A stretch of 59,529 nt of DNA from an uncultured Gammaproteobacteria bacterium (GCA_964391315.1 CAYMJR010000002.1:14730-74258), one strand, 5' to 3'. Positions 1,803 through 40,965 are shown, numbered from the stretch's first letter. The notes: generated by a model from the sequence alone, not told the origin. Numbers and translations: made by a program.

Positions 1803-2855
1803 ATGAAAATAGCTATCGATATTTCTCCTTTACAGACGGGACATAAGGTACGTGGAGTCGGGTTTTACTTGAGTCACTTAAAAAATGCCTTGGTCACATA
1901 TTTCCCAGAACACGAATATATTTTTTTCGAAAACAAAGAGCAGATTAACCAAAAAATTGATCTTATTCATTACCCATATTTTGAACCATTTTTTATAACG
2001 TTGCCTTTTTTTGAACAATATAAAAAGGTAATTACCGTTCACGATTTAACGCCACTAGTTTTTCCTGATCATTTTCCAGCAGGGATAAGAGGCAATTTTG
2101 CTTGGCAAATCCAGCGATTTAATCTTAAACGTTCTGATGGAATTATTACCGATTCCGATTCTTCAACAAAAGATGTTTACAAGTATACTGGTGTCTCTAC
2201 AAAAAAAATTCATACAGTACATTTGGCAGCAGGAGAAGAATTTATACGACTCACGAATCATGAATCACGAATTAAGGATGTACGAAAAAAATATAGTTTA
2301 CCTGAGAAGTTTGTTTTGTATGTAGGGGATGTGACTTGGAATAAAAATCTTCCGCAGCTTGTTCAAGCAATGAAAGAACTAAAACTTCCGCTTGTTATGG
2401 TTGGAAAAAGCTTGGTTCAGACAGATTTTGACCGGACAAATCCATGGAATAAAGATTTGATCACAGTACAAAAAGAAACAGAAGGAGAGAGTAACTTTAT
2501 CAAACTTGGTTTTGTCCCAACTGACGATCTTGTTGCACTTTATAATGCAGCAACCGTTTTTGTTTTCCCTTCAGTTTATGAAGGTTTTGGTCTTCCTGTT
2601 CTTGAGGCTATGCAATCAGGCTGTCCGGTCGTCACTACCAAAGGCGGTTCTCTTGCAGAAGTAGCTGGAGATGCTGCGTATTTTGTTGATGGCTATGATA
2701 CGAAAAGTATCGAAAAAGGAATAGCGGGCGTTTTTGAATCTAAAAGACTGCAAGACTCACTAAGAGAAAAAGGATTTGCACAAGCGAAAAAATTCAGCTG
2801 GAAACAAACTGCAAAACAAACAATTGAAGCATACAAGAATTGTTTATCACAATAA
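1803..2855 (+). CDS. GT4 glycosyltransferase (MtfB-like)
   Basis: MKIAID start, TVHDL, FPSVYEGFGLPVLEAMQSG (EX7E), FSW. ATG 1803 preferred to TTG 1797. Confidence 0.9.
   Translation: MKIAIDISPLQTGHKVRGVGFYLSHLKNALVTYFPEHEYIFFENKEQINQKIDLIHYPYFEPFFITLPFFEQYKKVITVHDLTPLVFPDHFPAGIRGNFAWQIQRFNLKRSDGIITDSDSSTKDVYKYTGVSTKKIHTVHLAAGEEFIRLTNHESRIKDVRKKYSLPEKFVLYVGDVTWNKNLPQLVQAMKELKLPLVMVGKSLVQTDFDRTNPWNKDLITVQKETEGESNFIKLGFVPTDDLVALYNAATVFVFPSVYEGFGLPVLEAMQSGCPVVTTKGGSLAEVAGDAAYFVDGYDTKSIEKGIAGVFESKRLQDSLREKGFAQAKKFSWKQTAKQTIEAYKNCLSQ
2246..2280 (+). repeat. Degenerate 7-bp tandem repeat in GT4 linker
   Basis: acgactc acgaatc atgaatc acgaatt aaggatg. Confidence 0.75.
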
Positions 2856-2860
2856 ATAGC

Positions 2861-4132
2861 ATGAAAGAAAAAGCAAAAGAACTAATCAAACATCCTCTTA
2901 TTTATGGCAGTAGTATTGTCGTTATAGGAAATCTTTTCGCTAACTTTTTTAATTTTCTCTTCAATTTATTTATGAGCCGCAATCTTTCAATCTCCGATTA
3001 TGGAGTTATGGCAAGTATTGTTGCATTAATTGCTTTTCCGAGTTTGGCTGTTGGAGCTATTACACCAATGGTAATACATTTCGCAGGAAAATATTTCGCA
3101 ACCGGAGAATTAGCAATGATACGAGGTCTCTATTTAAAAATTAATAAGTGGCTATTTATTTTGGCAATTGTTATATGCCTTTTATTTCTTATTTTTATTC
3201 CTACAATTAATGCATTTTTCCATATTAATAATACCGGAATACTATTCCTTACCGATGTAATTATCTTTTTTATCATCATAAGCACACTCAATATGGCACT
3301 TGTTCAGGCTAAATTAGCATTTCTCTCGCAGGTATTTATCAACATTTCTGGTTCCGTTCTAAAAGTTGTTGCAGGAACGATTTTAGTATTCAGCGGATTT
3401 GCGCTTGGTGGAGCAGTCTTTGCATTTTTCCTTTCATTTCTTGTCTCATATATTGTCAGTTTTATCCCTCTCGGGTTTATTTTTGACAGAAAAACAAAGC
3501 CAGTACATGTAGACACAAAAGAACTTTTCGATTATGGAATTCCTTCTGCCCTAACGCTTATAGCAATAACCTCATTTATTTCCACTGATATTATTCTGGT
3601 CAAACATTTTTTCCCTCCAAATCAAGCAGGTATTTATGCGGGGATGTCTCTGGTCGGACGAGTTATATTTTATCTTTCAGCCCCAATTGGTAATGTGATG
3701 TTTCCGGTAATTGTTCAGAAATATAGTAAGAATGAAAATTTTACTAACACATTTAAATTTGCAATGTTGCTTGTTTTAATCCCGTCAATAGCTCTTACTA
3801 TCTTTTATTACCTTTTCCCAAACTTTACAATACTTTTCTTTCTCAAAAAGTCCGCATATCTTGAAGTAACTTCATTACTCTGGATTTTTGGTTCCTTTAT
3901 AACTCTTTATAGTCTTTTGACAATTATCACCAATTTTTTCTTATCAATTAAAAAGACAAAGGTTTATATCCCGATTAGTTTAGGAGCGATAGTGCAGATT
4001 GTATTAATTCTTTTTTTCCACCAGACATTTTTTCAAATAGTATCTATTTCTGTTGGTATTACCTTTTTACTTGTGTTGGGACTTTTGTTATACTACCCGT
4101 ATGCCACACAAAAAAACGAGCTTACACGCTAA
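2861..4132 (+). CDS. Oligosaccharide flippase (Wzx/MOP family)
   Basis: About 12 hydrophobic segments, LSISDYGVM, TDIILVKHFF...AGIYAG motifs. ATG at 2861. Confidence 0.85.
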   Translation: MKEKAKELIKHPLIYGSSIVVIGNLFANFFNFLFNLFMSRNLSISDYGVMASIVALIAFPSLAVGAITPMVIHFAGKYFATGELAMIRGLYLKINKWLFILAIVICLLFLIFIPTINAFFHINNTGILFLTDVIIFFIIISTLNMALVQAKLAFLSQVFINISGSVLKVVAGTILVFSGFALGGAVFAFFLSFLVSYIVSFIPLGFIFDRKTKPVHVDTKELFDYGIPSALTLIAITSFISTDIILVKHFFPPNQAGIYAGMSLVGRVIFYLSAPIGNVMFPVIVQKYSKNENFTNTFKFAMLLVLIPSIALTIFYYLFPNFTILFFLKKSAYLEVTSLLWIFGSFITLYSLLTIITNFFLSIKKTKVYIPISLGAIVQIVLILFFHQTFFQIVSISVGITFLLVLGLLLYYPYATQKNELTR

Positions 4133-4919
4133 GCTTTTTTCAATAATAGTTCCTGCTTATAAACAAGAAAAAACTATTGCAAAAGATCTGCATAGAATTA
4201 AACAGGTAATGGATCAATTGCGATATGATTATGAAATAATTGTTGTTGTTGATGGATTTCTTGATCGAACTTATGAACGTGCAAAAAAAGTAGAATCCTC
4301 AAAGATTAAAGTTTTTGGATACGAACATAATCACGGAAAAGGGAATGCAATCCGTTATGGCATGGCAAAGTCAAAAGGTGAGATAGTTGCATTTATTGAC
4401 GCAGGTATGGATTTACAGCCAAATGGGATATCAATGCTTCTTGAACATTATGAATGGTATAACGCGGACATTATTGTTGGATCAAAATTACATCCGGTCT
4501 CAAAAGTTAAGTATCCTTTAGAAAGAAGAATTCTTTCTTGGGGTTATCGTATGTTGACAGGAATTTTATTTGGTTTGCAGGTAAGAGATACACAGGTTGG
4601 TATGAAATTATTTAGAAAGAAAGTATTAGAAGATGTTTTACCTCGTTTGGTTGTCAAAAGATATGCATTTGATGTAGAAATTCTTGCAGTCTCTTACTAC
4701 CTCGGATATAAAAGAATTTATGAAGCACCAATCGAATTGGATTTTACGAATGTCACTTCATCAATAACAGTGAAAAATTTTTGGCAGATTGTTAGTCTGA
4801 TGTTGGTTGATACAGTAGCGATTTTTTACCGGCTCAAAATTTTGCGGTACTATGATAGTAGAAATAAAAGGAAATGGAGTTTTGAACCTGAACTTAATTT
4901 TCGAGTTAACCTACCATGA
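4101..4919 (+). CDS. GT2 glycosyltransferase, polyprenol-phosphate sugar synthase (DPM/DPG-synthase-like)
   Basis: IVPAYK, VVVDG, GKGNAIRYG, FIDAG, RDTQVGMK, AFDVEIL. ATG 4101 preferred. Confidence 0.85.
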   Translation: MPHKKTSLHAKLFSIIVPAYKQEKTIAKDLHRIKQVMDQLRYDYEIIVVVDGFLDRTYERAKKVESSKIKVFGYEHNHGKGNAIRYGMAKSKGEIVAFIDAGMDLQPNGISMLLEHYEWYNADIIVGSKLHPVSKVKYPLERRILSWGYRMLTGILFGLQVRDTQVGMKLFRKKVLEDVLPRLVVKRYAFDVEILAVSYYLGYKRIYEAPIELDFTNVTSSITVKNFWQIVSLMLVDTVAIFYRLKILRYYDSRNKRKWSFEPELNFRVNLP

Positions 4920-6013
4920 ACATTCTTATCCTCAACTGGCGAGATCCGAAAAATCCAAAATCCGGTGGAGCTGAACAAGTAACATTTGAACATGCCAAAA
5001 GATGGGTTGAAGCAGGGCATACTGTTACATGGTTTACCTCATATTTTCTCAATGCAAAAAAAGAAGAGACTATCGATGGTGTTTCTATAATTAGAAAAGG
5101 CGGAGCATATACTGTTTACCTACTTGCGCCATTTTACTATTTCTTTTGTCAAAAAAACTTTGATATCGTTATTGATGAGATTCACGGAATACCTTTTTTT
5201 ACACCTCTTTATGTAAGGAAGCCAAAAATTGCTTTCATTCACGAAGTAGCTGGAGAAATTTGGGATTACATGTATCCCTTTCCGATAAATGTGTTTGGAA
5301 AAATTTTTGAATCGTTTTATTTTCTTTTTTATAAGGATATTTTTTTTTGGACAGACGCCCCATCAACAATTACTGATTTGGAAAAGCATGGAATAAAAAA
5401 AGAGGAATGTATTGCAATTCCTTGCCCTCCTGGTAATAAATCACTTGATAAGTTGCCGCAAAAAGAAACATCTCCGACATATATTTTTGTGAGTAGATTG
5501 GTCAAAATGAAGGGAATAGAGAATATTTTGAAAACCTTCAAACTTATTGTTGCAGAGAAACCCCAAGCGAAATTGTGGATTGTTGGTGGTGGAGAAGCAA
5601 GTTATATGAAAACTTTGGAAACAAAGATAAAAAATTGTGGTATAGCAAAAAACGTCACTTTTTATGGATATGTATCAAATCAGAAAAAATTGGAATTAAT
5701 GAGAAGGGCACATATCCTTTTGCATGCATCTGTAAAAGAAGGATGGGGACTAGTTGTCCTGGAAGCTGCATCACAAGCAACACCTGCTGTTGTATACAAT
5801 GTACCCGGTCTTTGTGATGTCGTAAAGAATGGGAAAACGGGAACAGTCATAAAGCGAAATACTCCTGATGAGATGGCAAAAGAAGCAGTAAAACTTTTTG
5901 AAAACAAAAAGAGATATAGTGAATATCAAAAAAATGGATTAGCCTGGGCTTCTAGTTTACGGTGGGATACCGTAGCAAAGGACAGTTTACAGCTTTTAGA
6001 ACGTCATGTATAA
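4916..6013 (+). CDS. GT4 glycosyltransferase
   Basis: NWRDPKNPKSGGAE, VSRLVKMKG, KEGWGLVVLEA. Confidence 0.9.
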   Translation: MNILILNWRDPKNPKSGGAEQVTFEHAKRWVEAGHTVTWFTSYFLNAKKEETIDGVSIIRKGGAYTVYLLAPFYYFFCQKNFDIVIDEIHGIPFFTPLYVRKPKIAFIHEVAGEIWDYMYPFPINVFGKIFESFYFLFYKDIFFWTDAPSTITDLEKHGIKKEECIAIPCPPGNKSLDKLPQKETSPTYIFVSRLVKMKGIENILKTFKLIVAEKPQAKLWIVGGGEASYMKTLETKIKNCGIAKNVTFYGYVSNQKKLELMRRAHILLHASVKEGWGLVVLEAASQATPAVVYNVPGLCDVVKNGKTGTVIKRNTPDEMAKEAVKLFENKKRYSEYQKNGLAWASSLRWDTVAKDSLQLLERHV

Positions 6014-7142
6014 TAAATCTTCAGATAAGATGACTATACCTTTTGTTGATTTACAAGCACAGTATAAAGAGCTGGAAGCCTCGATTCAATCTGCAATTAA
6101 TAAAATACTTCAAGACACGAGTTTTATTCAAGGCAGCGATGTAAAACTGTTTGAAGAAGAATTTGCGGCATATATTGGTACAAAGTATTGTGTTGGTTTA
6201 AATTCCGGTACAGATGCATTAATTTTGGGAATAAAAGCTTTAGATTTAAAAAAAGGAGAAATAATTGTTCCTGCGCAAACATATTACTCAGGAGCCTTGG
6301 CTCCGCTAGTTAATGATTTCAAACCTGTATTTGTTGATGTTGATGAAAATGATTTTGGAATAAATTTAGAAGATCTCAAGAAAAAGATAAACAAAAAGAC
6401 AAGAGCAATAATTGTAACTCATCTGTATGGACAAGCAGATAAGATTGATGAAATAAAAAAAATTATCAATCAAACAAATAAAGAAGTTCTTATTATTGAA
6501 GATGCATGCCAATCACATGGTGCATATTTTAAGAAAGCGAAAGTAGGAACATTTGGTGTTTTTGCCGCATTTTCTTTTTATCCTGGTAAAAATCTTGGTG
6601 CTTTTGGAGATGCAGGTGCTCTAGTTACCAATGACAAAAAGATAGAAAAAAAATTAAAACTTTTGAGAGAGTATGGACAAGAGAAAAAATATTATCATAC
6701 AAGTATCGGTTATAATTCAAGATTGGATGCTCTACAGGCGGCAATTTTACGTGTGAAATTACCTTATTTAGATCAATGGAATAAAAAACGTCAAAAAATT
6801 GCAGCCTACTATACAAAACAACTTAATGCAAAGTTACCGTTTATTAAAACGCCGAATAATTTTGATGAAAGAAAGAGTGTTTATCACGTATATGTAGCCC
6901 GAGTACCAAAAAGAGATGCGTTACTTGCTTATCTCAGAGATAATAATGTTTTTGCCCAGATACATTATCCTGTTCCGTTACATTTACAGGAAGGCTTTAA
7001 TTTTCTCGGGTACAGAAGGGGAGATTTACCACTAATAGAAAAAATTTCTTCAGAAATTATCTCGCTACCAATATATCCACATATGACAGAAGAGAATGTT
7101 GATTTTGTTATCAAAAAGATAATTGCATTTTATAAAAAATAG
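6006..7142 (+). CDS. DegT/DnrJ/EryC1/StrS PLP-dependent sugar aminotransferase
   Basis: IPFVDL, NSGTDAL, EDACQSHGA, SFYPGKNLGAFGDAG with the Schiff-base Lys, GYNSRLD. Start may be 6030. Confidence 0.92.
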   Translation: MYNKSSDKMTIPFVDLQAQYKELEASIQSAINKILQDTSFIQGSDVKLFEEEFAAYIGTKYCVGLNSGTDALILGIKALDLKKGEIIVPAQTYYSGALAPLVNDFKPVFVDVDENDFGINLEDLKKKINKKTRAIIVTHLYGQADKIDEIKKIINQTNKEVLIIEDACQSHGAYFKKAKVGTFGVFAAFSFYPGKNLGAFGDAGALVTNDKKIEKKLKLLREYGQEKKYYHTSIGYNSRLDALQAAILRVKLPYLDQWNKKRQKIAAYYTKQLNAKLPFIKTPNNFDERKSVYHVYVARVPKRDALLAYLRDNNVFAQIHYPVPLHLQEGFNFLGYRRGDLPLIEKISSEIISLPIYPHMTEENVDFVIKKIIAFYKK

Positions 7143-7153
7143 CTTTTTTGTCC

Positions 7154-7183
7154 TTGACAATAAAAAGGATGAGCTGGTAATAT
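7154..7183 (+). promoter_or_regulatory. Sigma70-type promoter TTGACA-18-TAATAT (TG-extended)
   Basis: TTGACA 7154-7159 and TGgTAATAT 7175-7183; the ATG is 7 nt downstream. Confidence 0.65.
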
Positions 7184-7190
7184 AGCATAT

Positions 7191-7574
7191 ATGAAAATTG
7201 TCAGAAAACTTAAGCCGTTCCATACAGACGATAGAGGAGATATCTCTCATATTTTAAAAGATGAAACCCCAATAACAAGTGCATTACTTATTACTTCCAA
7301 AAAGGGAGCAATCAGAGCCAATCACTGGCATAAAAATGATACACATTATGTGTATTTGACAAAAGGGAAAATGGAATATACCTACCGTGATATAAAAGCA
7401 GCAAATAGTAGAAAAAGAACCATTATTGTAAATGCAGGAGAAGTTATTGAAACCCCTCCTATGACAGAACATGCTATGAAGTTCCTCGAGGATTCTGTTT
7501 TTATCGCATTTACGACTGAACCACGAGATCAAAAACATTACGAAACTGACACCACACGAATAAAGCTTATCTGA
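7191..7574 (+). CDS. Cupin-domain protein (sugar isomerase/epimerase-like)
   Basis: DDRG, GAIRANHWH...H, PPMTEHAM cupin motifs in a sugar-pathway operon. Confidence 0.75.
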   Translation: MKIVRKLKPFHTDDRGDISHILKDETPITSALLITSKKGAIRANHWHKNDTHYVYLTKGKMEYTYRDIKAANSRKRTIIVNAGEVIETPPMTEHAMKFLEDSVFIAFTTEPRDQKHYETDTTRIKLI

Positions 7575-7576
7575 GT

Positions 7577-8824: not shown

Positions 8825-8826
8825 TT

Positions 8827-10898: not shown

Positions 10899-10901
10899 TA
10901 T

Positions 10902-11369
10902 ATGAAAAAAACAAGTATCAATAATCAGAAACAAACGATAAGAGATGTCTACTTAGGCGAAAACGTGAAAATATTTGATTTTGTTAATCTTTATGAATGC
11001 GAGATCGGTGATGAGTCGATGATAGGAGCGTTTGTCGAAATTCAAAAAGGAGCAAAAATTGGTAAAAAATGCAGGATTCAATCGCATTCTTTTATCTGTG
11101 AAAAAGTAACGATAGAAGATGAAGTTTTTGTCGGTCATGGAGTAATATTTATTAATGATAAAAACCCAACGGTTGAAAAAACATTGAAAAAACTGTATAA
11201 CATGGAAAATGTCTTAATTAAAAAAGGCGCGACAATTGGGTCCGGAGCAATTATAATGGCAGGTGTTACTGTTGGATCCAATGCTTTTGTAGGAGCAGGA
11301 GCTGTAGTGACAAAAGATGTGCCTGCAAATACTACAGTAGTTGGAGTTCCGGCAAGAGAAATGCATTAA
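10902..11369 (+). CDS. Hexapeptide-repeat sugar N-acyltransferase (WbpD/WxcM-like)
   Basis: IGAFVEIQKGAKIG, VFVGHGVIFIND, VGAGAVVTKDVP...VGVPA. Confidence 0.85.
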   Translation: MKKTSINNQKQTIRDVYLGENVKIFDFVNLYECEIGDESMIGAFVEIQKGAKIGKKCRIQSHSFICEKVTIEDEVFVGHGVIFINDKNPTVEKTLKKLYNMENVLIKKGATIGSGAIIMAGVTVGSNAFVGAGAVVTKDVPANTTVVGVPAREMH

Positions 11370-11375
11370 GAATAT

Positions 11376-25851: not shown

Positions 25852-28137
25852 ATGAGATTTCTTTCCATAATTTTTTCGTTGTTATTTTTTCTTCTTTTTT
25901 TAAGTTCTCCTGTTAATGCACAGGAAAAAGAGTCTCATCCCGTTATCACTATTATTAATCCTATCCGCGGAAATGAATTAGGACTGGAAAAAACAGATTT
26001 ACTCTCTAGTTTACAGGCGCAATGGAAAGTTACATCAGAAGCGGGCCTCTCTGCTACATGGCTTTGGCAATATTCTGCATTGGAGAACGAGCAACTTGTG
26101 GATTTTGCGAAGAAGGATATGAAAGGTCAGGAATTTGGTATTTTTCTTGAAATTGATAGAAATTTAGCTCAAAAATCGGGAGTCCAGTATAGAGGTCAGG
26201 GTCCGTGGTATTTTTCTGATGGGTTATTTCTTGTGTCATATGATATTGGTGAAAGAAGAAAACTAATTGACGGATTATTTTCTTCGTTTAAAAAGAAGTT
26301 TGGATATTATCCAAAAACAGTCGGAGCTTGGTGGATAGGCGCGGATTCCCTTACGTACATGCAACAAAAATATGGAATCGTTGCTGCGGTAAAGGCAACG
26401 GACCAAGCTGATATGGATGTATATTCGATTTTAGGAACACCGTGGAATATTCCTTATATTGCTTCTCAACAAAACGAGGGGATACCGGCGAGTAACGATA
26501 ATAGTTCACATGTTGTAATACTTCAGTGGGCACCACGAGATCCAATCGACGGATATAAGGATGCCAGGTATAGTATGCAGGATTTTACTCTTGTGGGCTA
26601 TGATTTTTCTTACGTTGATTATCTTTTCTCTCTTTTTTTGAATAAACCTCTGGATAATCTTGTAATTGGTTTAGAAAATGGCAGCAACTTAGCAGGTTAT
26701 GAGAAGGGATATAGTCAATATCTTCAGAAGGCAGCGACGCTTAAAAAGTCAGGTAAGATAGATATTCTTACAGCAAGCGATTATGCTGAAAGTTTTCTCG
26801 CTCAAAAATCAACATTCTCTGAGAATCACTATTTTTTAACAAAGGGCTTTAAATCTGATAATGAGTCATTTTGGTACAATTCAGAAAATTTCAGAGCTGC
26901 TATACATAAAGTCGGAAACACTATTTATCTTGTTGACCTCAGGGATTATTCCCAAAAAAATAAAGAAGACTTTTCTTTGTTACCCAATTCTCAGGGCTAT
27001 TTGAGGATTTCTACCCCTTCATATATTGATTCGATTCGCATGCCTGATGAGAAATTATTTATTGCTAGTAATGCCGGAAGATTGAATGTTAACAAACAGG
27101 GAGATACTGTTACACTTTTAAGCGGCACAAAAAAAATAGCCTCTTTTACTGATTTATCAGTAACACTATTTCTGGATAATAACACGAAACAGACATTCAC
27201 TTTTCACAAAAAACCACTCTTTATTAATGTATTTGCTATTTTATTGGGCATCTTTTTCCTCTATTTCATCTTTATATTTTTACAAACAAAAAATTTAAAA
27301 AGATCCATATTACAGTTGTATCTTCTCTTAATCCCATTATTTATTGCTTATTCATTTTTAAGTAGTGGAATAATGGAGAATATGCCTATACTATTTGATA
27401 GAAAACAGCTTTGGCTTCTTTCGGTTTTCCCAGCACTTTCATCGCTTTCACTCACATATACATTGCTTATCTATCAGACGTTGCCTTTGATAACGCTTCT
27501 TATCATTCATTATATATGTGTAATGAGGAGTACAGGGAAATGGCAGAGAGGATTGTTCTACGGTTTCTTTGTTGGATTACTTATGTTTTATATGCATGTT
27601 CCATATTTTCCTCTGAATAAATCTACCTATCTTGCGATTGCGTTAAGTTTCTTAGTCATAACTGTGTTATTTATTGTTGCTAGCATTCTTATATTTAAAC
27701 GATCGCGATCTAAGAAAGTATTGTTTTTATCTCTGATAAGTATTCCGATCGTTCTTGCAGTACTTACTTATACGGTTTATGTTTCCCGCAGTAGAATTAT
27801 TTTGACACCTTTTGAAGTGAATGCGTTACAGGTTATTAAAGAAAAAAAGAAGGATGTAATTTTCATTTCGCAAACAAATTACAATATTAAACCAATTTAT
27901 AAAGCAGTAAAACCTCTTTTGTATGAAGATTATCGATACGGTGCGCGACTGACGGGTACGAAATGGACAATAGTAGAGAAGACGGAGGGCGGCGTAGTGG
28001 ATTTATCTCGTTATGATGACAAATTTATTGTGCTTCCGCGATATTTGGGCGCTGATTTTTCAGAAAAGGAAATAGAAAAAAATAATATTAAAAAAATATT
28101 TGATAACGGACAGATAGCAATATTTATAAAGCAGTAG
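25852..28137 (+). CDS. Signal-peptide protein with a putative glycoside hydrolase/deacetylase barrel and multi-TM C-terminus
   Basis: Signal peptide ending VNA-Q; ATWLW, EFGIFLE, FKKKFGYYPKTVGAW; about 7 TM after residue ~455. Confidence 0.5.
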   Translation: MRFLSIIFSLLFFLLFLSSPVNAQEKESHPVITIINPIRGNELGLEKTDLLSSLQAQWKVTSEAGLSATWLWQYSALENEQLVDFAKKDMKGQEFGIFLEIDRNLAQKSGVQYRGQGPWYFSDGLFLVSYDIGERRKLIDGLFSSFKKKFGYYPKTVGAWWIGADSLTYMQQKYGIVAAVKATDQADMDVYSILGTPWNIPYIASQQNEGIPASNDNSSHVVILQWAPRDPIDGYKDARYSMQDFTLVGYDFSYVDYLFSLFLNKPLDNLVIGLENGSNLAGYEKGYSQYLQKAATLKKSGKIDILTASDYAESFLAQKSTFSENHYFLTKGFKSDNESFWYNSENFRAAIHKVGNTIYLVDLRDYSQKNKEDFSLLPNSQGYLRISTPSYIDSIRMPDEKLFIASNAGRLNVNKQGDTVTLLSGTKKIASFTDLSVTLFLDNNTKQTFTFHKKPLFINVFAILLGIFFLYFIFIFLQTKNLKRSILQLYLLLIPLFIAYSFLSSGIMENMPILFDRKQLWLLSVFPALSSLSLTYTLLIYQTLPLITLLIIHYICVMRSTGKWQRGLFYGFFVGLLMFYMHVPYFPLNKSTYLAIALSFLVITVLFIVASILIFKRSRSKKVLFLSLISIPIVLAVLTYTVYVSRSRIILTPFEVNALQVIKEKKKDVIFISQTNYNIKPIYKAVKPLLYEDYRYGARLTGTKWTIVEKTEGGVVDLSRYDDKFIVLPRYLGADFSEKEIEKNNIKKIFDNGQIAIFIKQ

Positions 28138-28177: not shown

Positions 28178-29131
28178 ATGATCAGCTTTGTTATTCCTCT
28201 TTTTAATGAAGAGGAGAGCCTTGAAGCGTTTTATCAAGAGTTGTTGCCTGTTCTTCCCAGTCTTGATCCAAAATACGAAATTATTTTTGTAGATGACGGC
28301 TCCAAAGATAATTCACTTTCTATTTTGAAATCATTTGCAGACAAAGACAAACATGTCCGTATTTTTTCTTTCCGGCGAAATCTTGGTAAGGCAGAAGCAC
28401 TTACCTTTGGTTTTTCTAAAGCAGAAGGAGAGTATATTGTCACTTTGGATGCGGATCTCCAGGATCAACCAAGTGAGATTAAAAAATTGCTTGATAAAGC
28501 CAAAGAAGGTATTGATCTTGTCTCTGGATGGAGAAAAAACAGACAGGATACTAAAAACACTGTACTTTCATCAAAGATATTTAATTCATTTGTAGGGATA
28601 TTTTTGGGATTGAAATTACATGATTATAATTGTGGGTTGAAAGTCTACACAAGCGAAGCAGCAAAAAGTCTGTATCTTTATGGAGGCATGCATCGATTTA
28701 TTCCACTTCTTGTATATCAACAGGGATTTACTGTTACCGAAATGGCAGTCAAACATCAGGAACGGAAATTCGGTCAATCAAAATATGCGCAAGGAGCTTT
28801 AAAAATTTTACAGAATCTTCCTGATATATTTACTATGCTTTTTCTCGCAAAATTTGGCAAACGGCCCCTTCATTTTTTTGGTGTCGTCGGAGGAATTGTA
28901 TTTTTGATTGGTTTGATTATCTTTCTTTACTTATTTGGTCTTCGTTTGGAAGGTCAAGTCATTGGACGAAGACCTCTTTTCTTCACCAGTATTTTATTGA
29001 TCAGCAGCGGTTTGCAGGTTCTTTTTACCGGTTTTTTGGCAGATCTTATGATCAATATTGCTCATGCTCCTAAGCTTTTGGATGAGGGCAATCTTAATTT
29101 TCCTCTTAAATATTCCACAGATAAGGAATAG
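28178..29131 (+). CDS. GT2 undecaprenyl-phosphate glycosyltransferase (ArnC/GtrB-like)
   Basis: PLFNEE, VDDGSKD, RRNLGKAEAL, LDADLQD, HRFIP, two C-terminal TM. Confidence 0.9.
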   Translation: MISFVIPLFNEEESLEAFYQELLPVLPSLDPKYEIIFVDDGSKDNSLSILKSFADKDKHVRIFSFRRNLGKAEALTFGFSKAEGEYIVTLDADLQDQPSEIKKLLDKAKEGIDLVSGWRKNRQDTKNTVLSSKIFNSFVGIFLGLKLHDYNCGLKVYTSEAAKSLYLYGGMHRFIPLLVYQQGFTVTEMAVKHQERKFGQSKYAQGALKILQNLPDIFTMLFLAKFGKRPLHFFGVVGGIVFLIGLIIFLYLFGLRLEGQVIGRRPLFFTSILLISSGLQVLFTGFLADLMINIAHAPKLLDEGNLNFPLKYSTDKE

Positions 29132-29182: not shown

Positions 29183-29716
29183 ATGAAGATTGGTATAGAT
29201 ATTTCTCAATTGGCTTACGCAAATACGGGAGTGGCGAATTATCTAGAAAACCTTTTGGATAGCTTATTAGATTTAGATAGTGAGAATGAGTATATCCTAT
29301 TTTTTTCATCTTTAAGACGAAGAATCAAGAATCACGAATTAAGAATCAAGGGACGAAAAAATGTTACGATTAAGGAATTTAAATTTCCGCCTACGATTTT
29401 AGATTTGCTTTGGAATAAAATGCATGTTATGCCAATTGAGAATTTTATTGGAGATGTTGATGTATTTATTTCTTCTGATTGGACAGAACCTCCGACGAAA
29501 AAAGCTAAAAAGGCGACCATTCTGTATGATTTGATCGTGTATAAATCACCTGAAGAAACAGCGGCCAAAATAATTGAGACGCAAAAACGTAAACTCTACT
29601 GGACAAAGAAGGAATGTGATGTTATTCTTTGCATTTCCGAGTCAACCAAACGGGACGCGGTTGAGATTTTAGGCATAGACGAAAAACGGTTGAAAGTAGC
29701 ATATCCAGGTTTGTAA
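29183..29716 (+). CDS. Stand-alone N-terminal domain of a GT4 glycosyltransferase
   Basis: MKIGID...TGVANY, TILYDL, CISESTKRD, ending VAYPGL-stop at the interdomain linker; no EX7E domain. Confidence 0.75.
   Translation: MKIGIDISQLAYANTGVANYLENLLDSLLDLDSENEYILFFSSLRRRIKNHELRIKGRKNVTIKEFKFPPTILDLLWNKMHVMPIENFIGDVDVFISSDWTEPPTKKAKKATILYDLIVYKSPEETAAKIIETQKRKLYWTKKECDVILCISESTKRDAVEILGIDEKRLKVAYPGL
29320..29350 (+). repeat. 7-bp tandem repeat in the GT4 half gene
   Basis: aagaatc aagaatc acgaatt aagaatc aag. Confidence 0.8.
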
Positions 29717-29720
29717 ATAT

Positions 29721-30860
29721 ATGATTATAGGAATTGATGGTAATGAGGCAAATGTAGAAAAACGTGTAGGTATCAGTGAATACGCGTTTCAATTGTTGTC
29801 ACAATTTTCAAGCTTAAAGTTTAAAAACCCAAACGCAAAGTTTATTGTGTATTTGAAAGACGAGCCACGGGATGAGTTGCCGCCTGAGTCTACAAATTGG
29901 AAATATCGGGTTGTGAAACCTGGGAAGTTGTGGACACAATGGCGCTTGCCTTTAGATTTATTTCTCCACAATCCGCGACCCGATGTTTTTTTCAGCCCTA
30001 CCCATTATGCACCACGGTTTTCTCCTGTCCCGAGCGTCGTCTCTGTAATGGATTTATCATATTTGTATTTTCCGGAAATGTTTAACAAATCAGATTTGCT
30101 GCAGCTTCGTAATTGGACAGCGTACTCGGTGAAGAAAGCCAACAAAGTTTTCACCATTAGTAACTCAAGCAAGAATGATATAATGAAGGAGTACAAGATC
30201 AGTTCTGATCGAGTTGTGGTTACTCATTTGGGTATCAAGGAGTCTGTTACCCTGACACCACATATATATAGTATGAATGAATTGAAAGGAAAATATGGTT
30301 TATCAGGCAATTTTATCCTCTTTGTTGGCACTCTTCAGCCTCGAAAAAATATCAAAAGACTAATTGAAGCCTTCGAAAAAGTCGTCAAGTCGAAAGCCGA
30401 AAGCCATAAGGATTTGCAGTTGATTATTGTTGGAAGAAGAGGATGGTTGTTTGAGGAAATACTTGAAACACCAAAAGAGCTTGGAATCGAAGAGCGCGTA
30501 AAGTTTCTTGAAAACGTTGAAGATGATGAATTACCGCTCTTTTATAAAAATGCGCTTTGTTTTGTCCTGCCAAGTCTTTACGAGGGGTTTGGATTACCTG
30601 TTCTTGAGGCAATGAAGCAGGGCTGTCCTGTTATAACGAGTAATATCTCGAGTCTTCCTGAAGCCGGAGGAGATGCAGCTCTCTATGTGGATCCAGAGGA
30701 TATTAACGATATTGCCAAAAAAATTACAGAATTAGTAAGTAGTGAGAAACTCCGAAAGGAACTGATTGAAAAGGGCAAAGTACAAGTAAAGAAGTTTAGT
30801 TGGGAAAAAACAGCGAAGGAGACATTGGAAGTGTTACAACAAGTTGCAAATAAAGGTTAA
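29721..30860 (+). CDS. GT4 glycosyltransferase (MtfB-like)
   Basis: MIIGIDG, VGTLQPRKN, PSLYEGFGLPVLEAM, FSW. Confidence 0.92.
   Translation: MIIGIDGNEANVEKRVGISEYAFQLLSQFSSLKFKNPNAKFIVYLKDEPRDELPPESTNWKYRVVKPGKLWTQWRLPLDLFLHNPRPDVFFSPTHYAPRFSPVPSVVSVMDLSYLYFPEMFNKSDLLQLRNWTAYSVKKANKVFTISNSSKNDIMKEYKISSDRVVVTHLGIKESVTLTPHIYSMNELKGKYGLSGNFILFVGTLQPRKNIKRLIEAFEKVVKSKAESHKDLQLIIVGRRGWLFEEILETPKELGIEERVKFLENVEDDELPLFYKNALCFVLPSLYEGFGLPVLEAMKQGCPVITSNISSLPEAGGDAALYVDPEDINDIAKKITELVSSEKLRKELIEKGKVQVKKFSWEKTAKETLEVLQQVANKG
30387..30410 (+). repeat. 7-bp tandem repeat in GT4 loop
   Basis: aagtcga aagccga aagccat aag. Confidence 0.6.
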
Positions 30861-31434: not shown

Positions 31435-31470
31435 AACACAGTTCCTGTTTTAGTTGCATGTATTCATATT

Positions 31471-32349: not shown

Positions 32350-32351
32350 TT

Positions 32352-35522: not shown

Positions 35523-35540
35523 AGACCACATAATCAGATC

Positions 35541-36989
35541 ATGAATAAAACGAAAACTTTATTACTCCTAATTCTTCTGGTAGGATTTGTATTCCGATTC
35601 TATCGTTTCGATAATCCTGTTGCTGATTGGCATAGTTGGCGTCAAGCAGATACTTCTTCTGTTTCACGAAATTTTGCCCAAGACGGATTTGATTTCTTGC
35701 ATCCACGGATGGATAATATTTCAAATGTTCAGTCAGGACTTGAAAACCCACAGGGATATTTTTTTGTAGAGTTTCCGATTTATAACGCTGCACAAGCTGG
35801 ACTTTTTAAATTGTTCGGCCTGCTGACACTAGAAGAGTGGGGAAGACTCGTTACGATTATCTCATCGACAGTTGCAGCTTTTTTTCTCTATCTTATTGTT
35901 AGTCGTCATAGCAATAAAACAATAGGTCTTCTTACTGCAGCTTTTTATACATTTATTCCTTTTGATATTTATTACGGTAGAGTGATTCTCACTGACCCAT
36001 CAATGGTAATGGCTACACTTGGCGCAATTTATTTTTTTGATCTCTGGACTGAGCAAACCGCAAAAAGTAAAAACAAAAAAGGAAAAGAATATTTTTATTA
36101 TGTTTTAGCATTGATCTTTACTGCAGGCACATTGTTGCTTAAGGCACAAGCGTTATTTTTTGTTCTGCCAATTATTTATTTAGCGTTTAAACGTTTTGGT
36201 TGGAAAACATTTTTACAATGGCAGTTATGGCTTTTTGCAATTCTTGCAGTTGCACCTCTTGGGGCATGGAGGATCTGGATGGCTCAATATCCTGAGGGAA
36301 TTCCGGCAAATGCGTGGCTTTTTAATGGTAATGGGATTAGGTTTCATCCGGCGTTCTTCCGTTGGATTTTTTATGAACGGTTGACGAAATTATTTTTAGG
36401 TTATTTTGGGATTGGTATTTTCGCGTTTGGTTTATTTGCACTAGGAAAAATAAAAGAGTGGATGTTTTTTGTGACATTTCTTTTCAGCTCTCTTTTGTAT
36501 GTCTGTATCCTTGCAACGGGAAATGTACAACATGATTATTATCAAATTCCGGTGATGCCGACGATTGCTATTATCTGTGCAATTGGGAGTTATTATTTAT
36601 ATCAACTGAAAAAGCCTATTGGGAAAATTGTTCTTGTTGTTTTGCTTTTAGGCGGGTTTTACTTTAGTTGGCTGCAAGTAAGAGATTTTTTCAATATTAA
36701 TAATCCTTCAATTATTATTGCAGGGAAAGCAGTCGATCAATTGGCGCCAAAAAACGCGAAGGTAATTGCAATTTATGATGGAGATAGCTCATTCCTTTAT
36801 CAGACAAAAAGAAAAGGATGGGCGAGTTTTGAAAAGCCACTTCCTGACATGGTGAAGATGGGAGCAAGTTATTTGGTTCTTGTAAATCCGACACCCCAAG
36901 ATCATGCGTTTGCAAAAGATTATAAAATTGTTGCAGCAACGAAAGAATATATTTTATATGATCTGGGATATAAAAAGAAAAACCACTAA
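35541..36989 (+). CDS. ArnT/PMT-like GT-C glycosyltransferase
   Basis: DWHSWRQADT, EFPIYN, YYGRVILTDP, LLLK, HDYYQIP; about 12 TM. Confidence 0.8.
   Translation: MNKTKTLLLLILLVGFVFRFYRFDNPVADWHSWRQADTSSVSRNFAQDGFDFLHPRMDNISNVQSGLENPQGYFFVEFPIYNAAQAGLFKLFGLLTLEEWGRLVTIISSTVAAFFLYLIVSRHSNKTIGLLTAAFYTFIPFDIYYGRVILTDPSMVMATLGAIYFFDLWTEQTAKSKNKKGKEYFYYVLALIFTAGTLLLKAQALFFVLPIIYLAFKRFGWKTFLQWQLWLFAILAVAPLGAWRIWMAQYPEGIPANAWLFNGNGIRFHPAFFRWIFYERLTKLFLGYFGIGIFAFGLFALGKIKEWMFFVTFLFSSLLYVCILATGNVQHDYYQIPVMPTIAIICAIGSYYLYQLKKPIGKIVLVVLLLGGFYFSWLQVRDFFNINNPSIIIAGKAVDQLAPKNAKVIAIYDGDSSFLYQTKRKGWASFEKPLPDMVKMGASYLVLVNPTPQDHAFAKDYKIVAATKEYILYDLGYKKKNH
36053..36080 (+). repeat. Degenerate 7-bp repeat in loop of ArnT-like gene
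   Basis: gcaaacc gcaaaaa gtaaaaa caaaaaa; A-rich, so weaker. Confidence 0.4.
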
Positions 36990-37000
36990 CTATCTAACTC

Positions 37001-38014
37001 ATGGGATTTTTACGACTATTTTTTGCACTTAGCGTCGTTATACATCACAGCAGTCCAACTTTTTTTGGATTTAATTTTTTTGATTCTTCAATTGCAGTCA
37101 CTGGATTTTTTGTGATTTCGGGATTTTATATGGCTTTAATATTGCAAGAAAAATATGTGCAGAAACATTCTTATAACTTATTTATTTCCAATCGACTTCT
37201 TCGAATTTATCCTACGTACTGGTTGATTCTTTTACTCACAATTATTATCAATATTATTTTAAGTGTTCAGGGGTCGGCGCATTTTTTATACGCCAACATA
37301 GTTGATTTTATTCGAGACGCGACAATTCTTGTCCGCACTGATTATTTTGAACTTGATCCAAATAAATTCCAGGTATTAACTATTGGCCCCGCATGGACAT
37401 TGGTACTTGAATTACTTTTCTATCTTATGGCGCCGTTTATTGTAAAGAGTATGAAAAAAATAATTTTTTTTATGATTATCAGTATTAGTGCACGATATCT
37501 TCTTTACCATTTTGCGGTATTACATAATATCCAACCATCAGTTCGCTTTTTCCCTGTAGAACTGGTTTTCTTTCTCCTTGGTGCATTATCGTACAAGATA
37601 TATGACAAAGTTAAAAATCATAATTGGAATACCATTTTTCTTTATTCTCTCGCTGGGTTATTTATTTTATTTACTTTTTTATATAACTATTTACCCTTTG
37701 ATCACACAATTGGAAGATGGAGTAATATGAAAGAAAATATTTATATCGCAATACTCTTTTTAGCGATTCCTTTTTGTTTTCTGATCAGTAAAAAAAGTAA
37801 ATTTGATAAAGCGTTTGGTGATTTATCATATCCTGTTTACATATCTCATACACTAGTTATCTTCGGGGTGTCGACATACATCCATACCATACATACCGAT
37901 TTATCTGCTTTGCTTATTATTATGATTACCCTTTGGCTATCATATATTATTGTTAAACTTTTTGAGCATCCGATTGATATGTGGAGACAAAGACGAATAG
38001 ATAAGATACAATAA
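37001..38014 (+). CDS. Acyltransferase-3 (OafA-like) membrane O-acyltransferase
   Basis: LRLFFALSVVIHH, FFVISGF, RLLRIYP, AWTLVLELLFY, GDLSYPVYISH, FEHP. Confidence 0.92.
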   Translation: MGFLRLFFALSVVIHHSSPTFFGFNFFDSSIAVTGFFVISGFYMALILQEKYVQKHSYNLFISNRLLRIYPTYWLILLLTIIINIILSVQGSAHFLYANIVDFIRDATILVRTDYFELDPNKFQVLTIGPAWTLVLELLFYLMAPFIVKSMKKIIFFMIISISARYLLYHFAVLHNIQPSVRFFPVELVFFLLGALSYKIYDKVKNHNWNTIFLYSLAGLFILFTFLYNYLPFDHTIGRWSNMKENIYIAILFLAIPFCFLISKKSKFDKAFGDLSYPVYISHTLVIFGVSTYIHTIHTDLSALLIIMITLWLSYIIVKLFEHPIDMWRQRRIDKIQ

Positions 38015-38020
38015 TAGCAA

Positions 38021-39214
38021 ATGAACATTTTGATGGTATCATCATATCTTCCTTACCCACTTCATTCTGGCGGACAAGTACGTTTGTACAACTTAATTAA
38101 AGAATTATCAGACAAACATGAGATAACCCTTGTCTGCGAGAAACGACCCAGCCAAACACAGGAAGATGTCAAAACATTGGAAAAGTTTTGTAAAAGAGTC
38201 GTGACAGTTGATCGCCGCAAGCAATGGACTATGGAAAATATTGCGAAATCAGGTATTTCAACACACTCATTTTTGGTAACCGGTCATACACTTCCTCAGA
38301 TGCAGGAAAAGATTACGCAACTGTTACACGAAGAAACATTTGATGTAATTCACGTAGAGACATTTTATGTGATGCAGAATGTTCCCGCGACTTCTCTTCC
38401 AGTTGTATTAGTTGAGCATAATATTGAATATCAGGTTTATCAGCGTTTTATGAATCGCGTTCCAATCGTTTTAAAGCCATTGTTGAAGATTGATATTGCA
38501 AAAATTAGAAAAGAAGAGGAGAATTTTTGGAAACAATCAAGCAAAGTTGTTGCTGTTTCAGAAGAGGATAGAAATGTTATTGAGAAAAATGGTTTAAAGG
38601 CTGACCTTGTTCCTAATGGGGTAAATATCGAACAGTTTTCGTTTAAAGCAGCACGAAATAATAATGTGAAGAGAATACTTTTTATCGGGGATTTTAAGTG
38701 GATTCAGAATCGGGATTCAGTTGAGTTTATTATTAAAGAAATTTGGCCCATTTTGGCAAATAGCAAATGGCAAATGACAAATGGAAGATTAAAGCTTTGG
38801 ATTGTGGCGAGAAGTATTCCGGAAGCAGTTAGGCGTTTGACAAATGACCCGAATGTATTATTTGATGAAGAAAGTTCAGCAAAACAAGCCAATGAAATTT
38901 TTCAGGAGGCAGATGTTTTGTTGGCACCAATTCGCGTTGGCGGCGGGACGAGTTACAAGATTTTGGAATCCATGAGTTGTGGTACACCTGTTGTGGCTAT
39001 GCAGATGTCTGCATCTGCAATTCATGCAGTAGATGGAAAAGATATTATGGTTGGTAAAGTTGCACAAGAACTCGCGGATAAGACAATTACACTTTTAGAT
39101 AATGAAAAAGTGTACAAGACGATTGCTACTAATGGGCGCAAGCTAATTGAAGAGCATTACAGCTGGAAAATGATTGCAGAAGAGTTAAGCCGTATCTATA
39201 ATCTGCTTGCTTGA
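38021..39214 (+). CDS. GT4 glycosyltransferase
   Basis: PYPLHSGG, VEHNIE, VPNGV, APIRVGGGTSYKILESM, YSW. Confidence 0.9.
   Translation: MNILMVSSYLPYPLHSGGQVRLYNLIKELSDKHEITLVCEKRPSQTQEDVKTLEKFCKRVVTVDRRKQWTMENIAKSGISTHSFLVTGHTLPQMQEKITQLLHEETFDVIHVETFYVMQNVPATSLPVVLVEHNIEYQVYQRFMNRVPIVLKPLLKIDIAKIRKEEENFWKQSSKVVAVSEEDRNVIEKNGLKADLVPNGVNIEQFSFKAARNNNVKRILFIGDFKWIQNRDSVEFIIKEIWPILANSKWQMTNGRLKLWIVARSIPEAVRRLTNDPNVLFDEESSAKQANEIFQEADVLLAPIRVGGGTSYKILESMSCGTPVVAMQMSASAIHAVDGKDIMVGKVAQELADKTITLLDNEKVYKTIATNGRKLIEEHYSWKMIAEELSRIYNLLA
38755..38789 (+). repeat. 7-bp tandem repeat in GT4 loop
   Basis: ggcaaat agcaaat ggcaaat gacaaat ggaagat. Confidence 0.8.
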
Positions 39215-39792
39215 GGGACAATCAGTGGTAATATCATTGGCTTCTTTGCTATTACATCAATGCTAACACGAGTTGGCAATCGACTCATTACCGCAGGATG
39301 TTGTTTATAGTCTCTCGTACTTTTAAGAAGAGTAGTTGTTTGGAGGGTTGGTTTTGGCTCTCCATTAAAAATTGTAGATGATGGATTCGTTGTATATGCA
39401 TATGATTTTTCAATTGCTAAGTAATCAAGCAATGTCCCAATTTTTCCAGTAACTCCATCAATTCCTAGATCAGTTGTATATTTTGTAACGAGAGATTCTT
39501 GTGCTTCAGGAGTCCCAGTTACAGGAGCTTTAAGAGTATCAACGGCTCGATAGGCGACATCTCCTGACAAACTTGATTCCTGATTAAGCATATCAGGGTA
39601 GAATACACCTCCCCAGTGAATAGATAATATATGCGGAGGATGCCAAATAGCATAAAGATTTTGTGGAGTGAGTGTTACAATCTGAAAGCCAGCTTCTTTT
39701 AAAGCCTTACTTTGTTCGACACTAAACCTTGGATCTTCTACTTTTGATGGAAGGTCTTCAACTTTTTGAACATTTCTATATGCTTCAGTCAT
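39196..39792 (-). CDS. Hypothetical soluble protein
   Basis: 198 aa ORF filling the gap between two GT4 genes, with its own consensus promoter. Confidence 0.75.
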   Translation of the reverse strand: MTEAYRNVQKVEDLPSKVEDPRFSVEQSKALKEAGFQIVTLTPQNLYAIWHPPHILSIHWGGVFYPDMLNQESSLSGDVAYRAVDTLKAPVTGTPEAQESLVTKYTTDLGIDGVTGKIGTLLDYLAIEKSYAYTTNPSSTIFNGEPKPTLQTTTLLKSTRDYKQHPAVMSRLPTRVSIDVIAKKPMILPLIVPQASRL

Positions 39793-39798
39793 TGTGAG

Positions 39799-39827
39799 AT
39801 TCTAAAGAATTTGGTGGTATAAGTCAA
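39799..39827 (-). promoter_or_regulatory. Sigma70 promoter TTGACT-17-TAGAAT, leaderless
   Basis: Minus strand TTGACT 39827-39822, TAGAAT 39804-39799, 6 nt to ATG 39792. Confidence 0.7.
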
Positions 39828-39837
39828 ACGTTTGAGC

Positions 39838-39843
39838 TATACT
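39838..39843 (+). promoter_or_regulatory. -10 element TATACT, leaderless
   Basis: 6 nt before ATG 39850. Confidence 0.55.
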
Positions 39844-39849
39844 TAACTC

Positions 39850-40965
39850 ATGAAAATAGGAATTGATGCCAGATTGTGGAATGAAACAGGAGTGGGACGC
39901 TATATCCGGAATTTGGTTTGGGAATTAGAGAAATTGGATAAAAAGAATACCTATGTTTTATTTGTAAAAAAAGGATTTAAGAGTGAAAATTTGGGAATTA
40001 AAAATGATAGGTGGAGAATTGTTGAAACAGATGTACATTGGCATTCGGTGAAAGAACAACTCGCATTTCCTCAGGTTTTGTATAAAGAAAGTTTAGATCT
40101 CATGCACTTTACCTATTTTTCTCTTCCTGTTTTTTATAACCGTCCTTTTGTTGTAACGATTCATGATCTTATTATTAATCATTTCCCGACTGGCAAAGCA
40201 TCGACCCTGCCATATCCGCTATATCATCTCAAGCGAATAGGTTATAACTTTGTTATTGAATATGCAGTAAAAAACAGCAATAAGATTATTGTTCCTCTTA
40301 ATTCTGTTAAGGATGATGTTCTACAGACATTTAACATTGCAGAAAATAAAATTGCAGTGACCTACGAAGGAAGTTCCAATCTCAAATCGCAAAACGCAAA
40401 TCGAATGTTTGAAAATTATTTTCTTTATGTAGGGAATGCCTACCCGCATAAAAATTTGGAGCGGTTGATTGAAGCGTTTGATATGTTTACCAAACCGACA
40501 AAAGATGAAGTGAAGCTTGTATTGGTCGGAAAGGATGATTATTTTTATAAAAGAATCCGCGCAAAAATGGAGCAAAACAAAATAGAAAATGTCGTTTTGA
40601 AACACAATATTAGTGATGAAGAGCTATTCGCTCTTTATTCATATGCAAAGGCATTTGTTTCACCCTCGCTTATGGAAGGGTTTGGTTTGCCACCGCTTGA
40701 AGCAATGAGTGCGTCATGTCCTGTTTTATTGGCAGATATTCCATCGTTTAGAGAAGTTTGTCAGGATGCGGCAGTTTACTTTGATCCAACAAAAATTCAC
40801 TCACTACAAGAACAGTTGCAAGTAATGTATACTATGGATCACAAGAGGAGAGAAGAGCATATCAGAAAAGGTTTGGAGCGAGTAAAACAGTTTTCTTGGA
40901 AACGAATGGCAGACCAAACATTGAGTGTCTATGAAAGTTGCATTAGTCTACGACAGAGTAAATAA
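39850..40965 (+). CDS. GT4 glycosyltransferase (MtfB-like)
   Basis: MKIGIDAR, GVGRY, TIHDL, VGNAYPHKN, PSLMEGFGLPPLEAM. Confidence 0.92.
   Translation: MKIGIDARLWNETGVGRYIRNLVWELEKLDKKNTYVLFVKKGFKSENLGIKNDRWRIVETDVHWHSVKEQLAFPQVLYKESLDLMHFTYFSLPVFYNRPFVVTIHDLIINHFPTGKASTLPYPLYHLKRIGYNFVIEYAVKNSNKIIVPLNSVKDDVLQTFNIAENKIAVTYEGSSNLKSQNANRMFENYFLYVGNAYPHKNLERLIEAFDMFTKPTKDEVKLVLVGKDDYFYKRIRAKMEQNKIENVVLKHNISDEELFALYSYAKAFVSPSLMEGFGLPPLEAMSASCPVLLADIPSFREVCQDAAVYFDPTKIHSLQEQLQVMYTMDHKRREEHIRKGLERVKQFSWKRMADQTLSVYESCISLRQSK
40375..40402 (+). repeat. 7-bp tandem repeat in GT4 linker
   Basis: tccaatc tcaaatc gcaaaac gcaaatc. Confidence 0.65.

Follow-up and report, generated by a model that had tools for sequence, protein, structure and literature searches.

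Short tandem arrays of heptanucleotides lie inside five glycosyltransferase (GT) genes of a 59,529-nt stretch on contig C2 of genome G000 (the window), and arrays of the same kind recur throughout this genome and in many others of its phylum. Based on the analyses described below, we propose that the five arrays are probably in-gene members of a family of short heptanucleotide arrays (3–5 units with a CAAA/TCAA-type core) that would arise at the DNA level when copying falls out of register by 7 nt and would then be filtered by selection, and that they are not a glycan switch. The G000 assembly comprises 1.49 Mb in 50 contigs, with a GC content of 37.7% and a completeness of 86%. The names of its homologues (Roizmanbacteria, Gottesmanbacteria, Shapirobacteria and "Patescibacteria group") point to a lineage of the candidate phyla radiation (CPR).

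Tandem repeats were called with Tandem Repeats Finder (TRF), which returned five main period-7 arrays in the window, with 2.7–4.4 copies and 83–91% matches, all read on the plus strand and named here by their first position. The ACGAATC array at 2246–2272 (3.9 copies, 85% matches) is located in the interdomain linker of the GT4 gene 1797–2855 and encodes, in frame, the peptide RLTNHESRI. The AAGAATC array at 29320–29350 (4.4 copies, 83%; RRIKNHELRIK) falls in the N-domain of a truncated GT4 open reading frame (ORF), 29183–29716, while the C-domains of the GT4 genes 29721–30860 and 38021–39214 contain the AAGCCGA array at 30387–30405 (2.7 copies, 91%; KSKAESH) and the TGGCAAA array at 38754–38784 (4.4 copies, 83%; ANSKWQMTNG), respectively. 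The fifth array, AATCGCA at 40378–40403 (3.7 copies, 84%; NLKSQNAN), again occupies an interdomain linker, that of the GT4 gene 39850–40965. As judged by Pfam, all five hosts are GT4 glycosyltransferases, one of them (29183–29716) being a fragment. An earlier note on the window, written by a model from the sequence alone, had claimed arrays of period 7 in intervals close to these five, and period 7 is indeed the top self-match in each claimed interval, with identities of 0.75–0.83 that are attained by just 0.005–0.05% of same-length window positions. Array 2246 has a period-7 self-match of 0.75, and array 30387, the weakest of the five with a TRF score of 31, one of 0.82. The peptides quoted in the note (RLTNHESRIK, NSKWQMTNG and SNLKSQNAN) agree with the translation, and its assignment of two arrays to the GT-B interdomain linker is borne out for arrays 2246 and 40378 by the Pfam domain limits (residues 51–142 and 168–326 in GT 1797–2855; 14–174 and 179–337 in GT 39850–40965).

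The excess of period 7 extends to the whole genome. At TRF scores of at least 36, 40 and 46, the genome contains 44, 29 and 15 period-7 arrays, against means of 1.4, 0.2 and 0.0 in ten dinucleotide-preserving shuffles of the genome in 1-kb blocks, and chance is excluded as their source. Other periods at a score of at least 40 gave 1 (period 5), 8 (period 6), 7 (period 8) and 13 (period 9) arrays. Within ORFs (1,444 ORFs from a crude longest-ORF caller), two further nulls with 8 replicates each were applied: a codon shuffle within genes, and a synonymous-codon shuffle that keeps every protein. At a score of at least 40, 23 in-ORF arrays of period 7 were observed, whereas the codon shuffle left 0.0 and the synonymous shuffle 1.0. 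Periods 12 (50 observed against 42.5) and 15 (25 against 23.2) mostly survive the synonymous shuffle and therefore reflect protein repeats, whereas period 14 drops from 22 to 7.5; period 7, with its double period 14, is a property of the DNA and not of the protein. The genome-wide scan against codon-shuffled controls that the note had suggested thus reveals the excess, and its notion of a DNA-level repeat phenomenon holds, since a shuffle that leaves the proteins unchanged removes the arrays.

The repertoire of units is narrow. Relative to expectations drawn from random stop-free sense heptamers, which range from 0.03 to 0.07 arrays for this repertoire, the sense-strand units AAAGTTC and AAAAGTC each occur in 5 arrays (0.03 and 0.07 expected), and AAATCTC and AAATGGC in 3 arrays each. 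These four, together with AATCACG and AAGAATC, form the unit families found in the 44 arrays on many contigs. In mixed arrays the CAAA core is fixed and the remaining three bases vary; CAAA is present in 19 of 34 sense units (3.6 expected), and TCAA in 15 of 34 (2.4 expected) but in none of the 34 antisense units. Since the unit length of 7 has no factor in common with the codon length of 3, each circular triplet in the unit comes to be read as a codon, and the encoded peptide repeats only every 7 amino acids, after three 7-nt units. The orientation follows the same logic: TCAA is fixed on the coding strand because its complement, TTGA, holds the stop codon TGA, and the antisense unit contains a stop in 21 of 34 arrays, as opposed to 34% of random stop-free heptamers. 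When 52 arrays were grouped by unit and their flanks compared by eye, no shared motif was seen, and a mobile element with defined ends was rejected as a candidate. One contig of a public sequencing run, X1, matches only the TGGCAAA array (window 38749–38782) and is unlike the window on both sides; a near-identical array must therefore exist elsewhere in that sample, with C18:6497 or C20:12535 of this genome, or another organism, as candidates.

As to location, 35 of the 44 arrays (score at least 36) are inside ORFs; the other nine compare with 7.7% of the genome being non-ORF, an approximately 2.6-fold enrichment (p = 0.006). The hosts are by no means confined to glycosyltransferases. They include MurG, LeuRS, IleRS (two arrays), ArgRS, topoisomerase I (TopA), RecJ (three arrays), RecR, an ATP-dependent DNA ligase, glutamate dehydrogenase (GDH), RsmH, a FemAB-family protein, pilin-like proteins, 6-phosphogluconate dehydrogenase and a pseudouridine synthase, and the arrays in murG (C2:91820–91853) and leuS (C3:97868–97901) are perfect, as is one in a GT4 gene at C3:8766–8791. 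The 25 GT4 genes, which make up 2.6% of the ORF length, hold 5 of the 35 in-ORF arrays against 0.9 expected (p = 0.002, post hoc), and GT2 genes hold 1 against 0.9 expected; the remaining 30 of 35 outside GT4 genes include several in essential genes. Enrichment specific to the window was considered and rejected (4 of 44 arrays against 1.8 expected, p = 0.10).

In most of the hosts just listed, the array lies between Pfam domains, as in MurG (between residues 4–146 and 188–359), GDH (34–161 and 187–429) and LeuRS (13–605 and 657–754). Four of the five window arrays occupy just two places in the GT-B fold: arrays 2246 and 40378, like the MurG array, are positioned in the interdomain linker just before the first C-domain strand, and arrays 30387 and 38754 in the connection of the first helix to the second strand of the C-domain. 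In the AlphaFold2 (AF2) model of GT 38021–39214 (mean predicted local distance difference test score of 92.2; helices 228–246 and 249–254, strand 257–262), residues 245–255, encoded by array 38754, cover the end of helix 228–246 and a short turn ahead of strand 257–262. For array 30387 the placement is by motif, between the apparent helix ..LIEAFEKV and the apparent strand LQLIIVG, which would match the same helix-to-strand connection. The suggestion in the note that arrays are tolerated only in linkers and loops is supported by the Pfam limits and by the AF2 model.

Comparison with homologues indicates how these segments change. The loop of GT 38021–39214 is bimodal in length among 120 homologues (at most 69% identical), with 20–21 residues in 33 of them and 27 residues in 35, and the long loops carry 7-residue-periodic peptides such as SKIKNQKSKI, SNFKFQISNF and NHESRIM. 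This pattern fits the gain of three units (21 nt, or 7 amino acids), and the three-unit in-frame rule put forward in the note is visible at this one site. Two other sites behave differently. The array segment of GT 1797–2855 aligns without gaps to 120 homologues (27–28 residues in 103 of 120), and that of the truncated GT 29183–29716 is at the modal length of 27–28 residues (68 of 121 sequences). Whether the repeats are indels, a check proposed in the note, therefore depends on the site: a gain of 7 amino acids fits the GT 38021 family, but arrays 2246 and 29320 are not insertions. Neither are the latter ungapped conserved protein, the alternative against which the note had set its view, as the segment is the least conserved stretch, and at GT 1797 many homologues have heptamer-type peptides (RITNHESRI/V, NGKWQM/NGKWRM or KIEDLRLK) in its place. 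The linker of GT 39850–40965 varies in length among 19 relatives, with that of G000 the shortest, and TRF detects arrays of other units in 3 of the 19, a fourth being periodic by eye. In the MurG linker, a heptamer array is present in 3 of 19 relatives belonging to other genera (TRF), and one of these arrays is built of AAAGTTC, as in G000. Peptide families are shared between different sites, and the same permissive sites are occupied repeatedly by arrays whose units differ between lineages.

The density of arrays in relatives was also recorded. In the 19 relatives, 76 kb around the GT 39850 orthologue contain 22 arrays (score at least 36), 20 of them inside ORFs, and 78 kb around murG contain 3 at the same threshold (p = 7e-5, too strong a value, because the relatives do not count as independent samples). 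Heptamer arrays are packed far more densely in the relatives' glycan loci than in G000, several of those in the relatives being perfect arrays of 4–5 units, and some GT 39850 orthologues have arrays in both the linker and the C-domain helix–strand loop. In genome G014 (contig C10; locus L074, 596–745), the GT 39850 orthologue is frameshifted within the array-bearing linker, at a site where heptamer units flank a 16-nt perfect palindrome. The shift is compatible with the loss of one unit, but no less so with any −1 or +2 change; the gene may be truly broken or split, or the assembly may be in error.

Some features of the window itself deserve separate description. The ORF 29183–29716 (177 residues) corresponds to the N half only of its full-length GT4 homologues, which have 337–391 residues; it stops at the interdomain linker, 4 nt ahead of the next full-length GT4 gene. 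Contigs of the public run X4 have loose ends at 29131, 29720 and 29752, which together with the half-length ORF suggests that the segment has been lost or exchanged in variant strains. TRF further reports two-copy period-14 repeats at 28071–28098 and 37138–37165, which may be double-unit versions of heptamer arrays. The three weaker plus-strand arrays listed in the note do not stand on their own, and none has a TRF row: 36053–36080, in the PMT_2 gene 35541–36989, is A-rich and of low complexity (period-7 self-match 0.76, other periods 0.31–0.55), 29801–29842 is marginal (0.54, in the top 0.4% of window positions), and 39971–40019 is at background level (0.45, top 2%).

To view the arrays at the level of the phylum, we surveyed 301 genomes with the pattern (CAAA N3)x3 CAAA, which detects CAAA-core arrays only. 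In G000 there are 10 matches at period 7, none at periods 5, 6, 8 and 10, and one at period 9. The period-7 pattern is present in 121 of the 301 genomes, with 1,458 matches, up to 114 per genome and a patchy distribution by family; the period-8 control pattern is present in 26, with few matches save in a few octamer-array lineages. Lineages G077, G126 and G094 carry octamer arrays of the CAAATAAT type in place of heptamers. The distribution of the arrays was compared with that of two protein families. PF05635 (23S_rRNA_IVP, a four-helix bundle) occurs in 170 of the 301 genomes, with up to 15 or more copies, and in 1 of 14 well-known control genomes. Arrays and PF05635 are found together in 100 genomes, arrays only in 21, the gene only in 70 and neither in 110, corresponding to an odds ratio of 7.5 (Fisher p = 2e-14) and a Spearman correlation of counts of 0.62, values that carry no phylogenetic correction and are affected by cassette arms, which themselves raise array counts. 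Among the 66 genomes with five or more arrays, 62 have PF05635. Genome G184, one of the 301 and flagged as unpublished, has no pattern match and one PF05635 match. RVT_1, used as a control, is present in 102 of 301 genomes and is unrelated to the arrays (odds ratio 1.06), and a link to reverse transcriptases of the type found in diversity-generating retroelements was rejected on this ground.

We propose the following mechanism. Arrays would arise by out-of-register copying in 7-nt steps, through replication slippage or misaligned repair, and neighbouring units would then be homogenised. Selection would act as a filter, retaining cases in which (i) the net change in length is a multiple of three, by addition of 21 nt (7 amino acids) or by length-neutral overwriting, (ii) all three sense-strand frames of the unit are free of stop codons, and (iii) the site is a surface linker or loop. 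The products would be arbitrary K/S/Q/N-rich linker peptides, and GT4 genes would collect more arrays because their linkers are permissive and the genes probably dispensable. Loss of mismatch repair is ruled out as the cause, since MutS and MutL are intact in G000, with open frames of 888 and 577 residues. Several observations weigh against this mechanism. The units are far from random, as the counts for AAAGTTC and AAAAGTC demonstrate, and unit families, such as those encoding the NHESRI and GKWQM peptides, recur across sites and lineages; simple slippage on local seeds does not predict recurring, restricted units. For arrays in essential genes, an intermediate with +7 nt would not be viable. 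Arrays 2246 and 29320 have each replaced a segment at constant length, which needs conversion-like or compensated events. The presence of arrays tracks PF05635 and not RVT_1, which hints at an element-linked generator. Finally, none of the findings accounts for the step being 7.

Three of these observations, namely the restricted and recurring units, the length-neutral replacement and the tracking of PF05635, strain a pure slippage model and lead to an alternative that we regard as possible though doubtful. In it, the arrays within genes would be solo arms, or by-products, of a PF05635-linked family of heptamer elements, and an activity that is encoded by the element or depends on it would seed a limited set of units genome-wide, coding loops included. 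The array–gene odds ratio, the presence of the gene in nearly all array-rich genomes and its wide occurrence in the phylum argue for such a link, but the association is subject to the lack of phylogenetic correction and to the inflation of counts by cassette arms noted above, and four array-rich genomes have no detected PF05635, including G172 at 99% completeness. At the level of individual loci, each of the 6 top PF05635 loci has a period-7 or period-8 array immediately downstream of the gene, and 3 of the 6 have the complementary array upstream as well. In the complete genomes G081 and G244, all 7 PF05635 cassettes are, by eye, placed between complementary repeat arms, each with its own unit. 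Restricted, recurring units fit copying from existing arrays. The cassette units of G081 differ from the dominant solo unit. G000 itself has a single PF05635 match, on contig C1 (~186645–186803; locus L053, 1388–1718), and none in the window. This gene copy, flanked by 28-nt inverted repeats that are 79% complementary, is decayed (29.7 bits, under the family cut-off, with three stops), yet some G000 arrays are perfect and apparently young, in an assembly that is 86% complete. Intergenic heptamer hairpins occur at C25:3836–4001 (CAAA-core arms; folding z-score −2.2), C25:8759–8857 (−6.3) and C9:6551–6644 (−6.0); these hairpins and the decayed gene between inverted repeats speak for the element family. 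In-ORF arrays of G000, on the other hand, have no inverted partner within 500 nt; 3 of 52 arrays (score at least 34) have one, all intergenic. A more ambitious version, which we consider improbable, holds that a phylum-wide PF05635-associated repeat-writing system seeds CAAA-core arrays, that arrays in permissive loops rewrite linkers in 7-residue steps or at constant length, and that GTs are the preferred substrate. If true, protein loops would be diversified by an engine that works on the DNA, and transient frameshifted OFF states in dispensable glycan genes would be a side effect.

Simple sequence repeat (SSR) contingency loci of Haemophilus, Neisseria and other bacteria bring about phase variation of surface genes through changes in repeat number (PMC4692102). 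The earlier note had offered a comparable role for the window arrays, in which the gain or loss of one 7-nt unit would frameshift a glycosyltransferase and vary the surface glycan. We judge this quite unlikely. The likeness is that the unit is not divisible by three, so that one unit shifts the frame, and that the arrays are inside surface-glycan genes, with the post hoc enrichment in GT4 genes adding to it. However, 30 of the 35 in-ORF arrays are outside GT4 genes, several hosts are essential, and housekeeping genes such as murG and leuS bear perfect arrays, so that a GT-specific or surface-glycan device finds no support. Unlike contingency tracts, which are long and uninterrupted, the window arrays are short (2.7–4.4 units), interrupted (83–91% matches) and mid-gene. 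The denser GT loci of relatives, some with perfect arrays of 4–5 units, and the G014 orthologue of GT 39850 that is frameshifted exactly in the array-bearing linker are in the spirit of phase variation, but the G014 shift fits several other changes, as stated above. Length variants were sought in the assembled contigs of public runs (Logan). Contigs bridge arrays 29320, 30387, 38754 and 40378 without gaps in 4 runs from 3 studies, some of these runs being perhaps the source of the genome, and no insertion or deletion was found at these four arrays in contigs, which drop rare variants; for run X9 the coverage was 11 of 30 bins only. The short and interrupted arrays, the presence of the same kind of array in essential genes and the lack of contig indels together make a programmed glycan switch unlikely, while occasional OFF variants in dispensable GT genes are possible.

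Protein-level selection for flexible polar linker peptides, with no DNA process involved, is hardly tenable: the encoded stretches are K/N/S/Q-rich and located in linkers, but synonymous shuffling keeps all peptides and leaves 1.0 arrays instead of 23, the units also encode W, M, F, I and L (for example ANGKWQM and KVQSSKF), and intergenic arrays and hairpins use the units found in genes.

The proposed family of copied heptamer arrays can be set against known repeat systems. PF05635 hairpin cassettes have the same kind of array, co-occur in the phylum and are matched in G000 by hairpins with CAAA-core arms; unlike them, the window arrays are single, partnerless and within coding sequence, and the G000 gene copy is decayed. 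Rickettsia palindromic elements, of ~100–150 bp and inserted in frame, are similarly tolerated inside ORFs, but they are palindromes and not 7-nt tandem units. Borg tandem repeats create disordered protein regions, and their in-ORF unit lengths are all divisible by three (PMC9879509). They resemble the present arrays in that repeat DNA is tolerated in ORFs and adds or rewrites surface protein segments; the unit here, in contrast to the Borg amino acid tandem repeats (aaTR), is 7 nt long and read in all three frames in turn.

The closest class is that of prokaryotic long simple sequence repeats (LSSRs). In most prokaryotes no long SSR is as common as the heptanucleotide repeat, for which polymerase slippage over ~7 nt has been proposed (PMC4679880, summarising Mrazek 2007); in the summaries of Mrazek, Guo & Shah 2007, units in coding regions have lengths that are multiples of three (PMC4679880, PMC4692102). 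The G000 arrays share with this class the excess of 7-nt units over chance and over neighbouring lengths, the genome-wide dispersal over many unrelated loci and the presence of several units, and the likeness to heptamer repeats of the short tandemly repeated repetitive (STRR) type drawn in the earlier note is apt. A mainly intergenic location is not found here; compared with the summarised LSSRs, the core is CAAA/TCAA, the lineage is CPR, and 35 of 44 arrays lie in genes, some of them essential, and are read through in frame. STRR sequences of heterocystous cyanobacteria and the GGGNATC / GGGGA(C/T)T repeats of Xanthomonas and Nostoc are, according to Rehm 2015 (PMC4692102), G-rich, quadruplex-forming, over-represented between genes and under-represented in coding regions. 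Like the G000 arrays, they are short, scattered heptamer arrays; they favour about four units, and some form inverted pairs able to fold into hairpins. The G000 arrays, however, are rich in A and lie mostly within ORFs. In marine Beggiatoaceae, cyanobacteria and some Bacteroidetes, TAACTGA direct repeats are found mostly between genes, immediately ahead of start codons (MacGregor 2015, PMC4679880). Tandem runs of a preferred heptamer, two to six copies each, at numerous loci, a patchy phylogenetic spread and a stop-constrained orientation are common ground, whereas here several unit families take the place of the single unit and are mostly in frame within genes. Full-text searches returned nothing relevant on heptamer or heptanucleotide repeats in CPR and nothing linking intervening-sequence four-helix-bundle genes to tandem repeats. 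The statement in the note that no description is known in CPR glycan loci is half right: the searches found no paper on CPR, but for bacteria in general a heptanucleotide excess is in print in the summaries cited (PMC4679880, PMC4692102). The heptanucleotide repeat class is already known.

An excess of 7-nt repeats in bacteria has been on record since 2007 without an accepted cause, and CPR genomes provide a rich and unusually clean case of it: the arrays are read through in essential genes, are built from few units, return to the same structural loops in orthologues of different genera, and track PF05635, not reverse transcriptases, in 301 genomes. For annotation, K/S/Q/N-rich inserts with a 7-residue period in CPR proteins should be taken for repeat-derived linker filler and not for functional motifs. 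At the glycan locus itself, nothing in the arrays points to programmed phase variation; they look like a lineage-wide quirk of DNA copying that is filtered by selection, and not like a dedicated switch for surface sugars.

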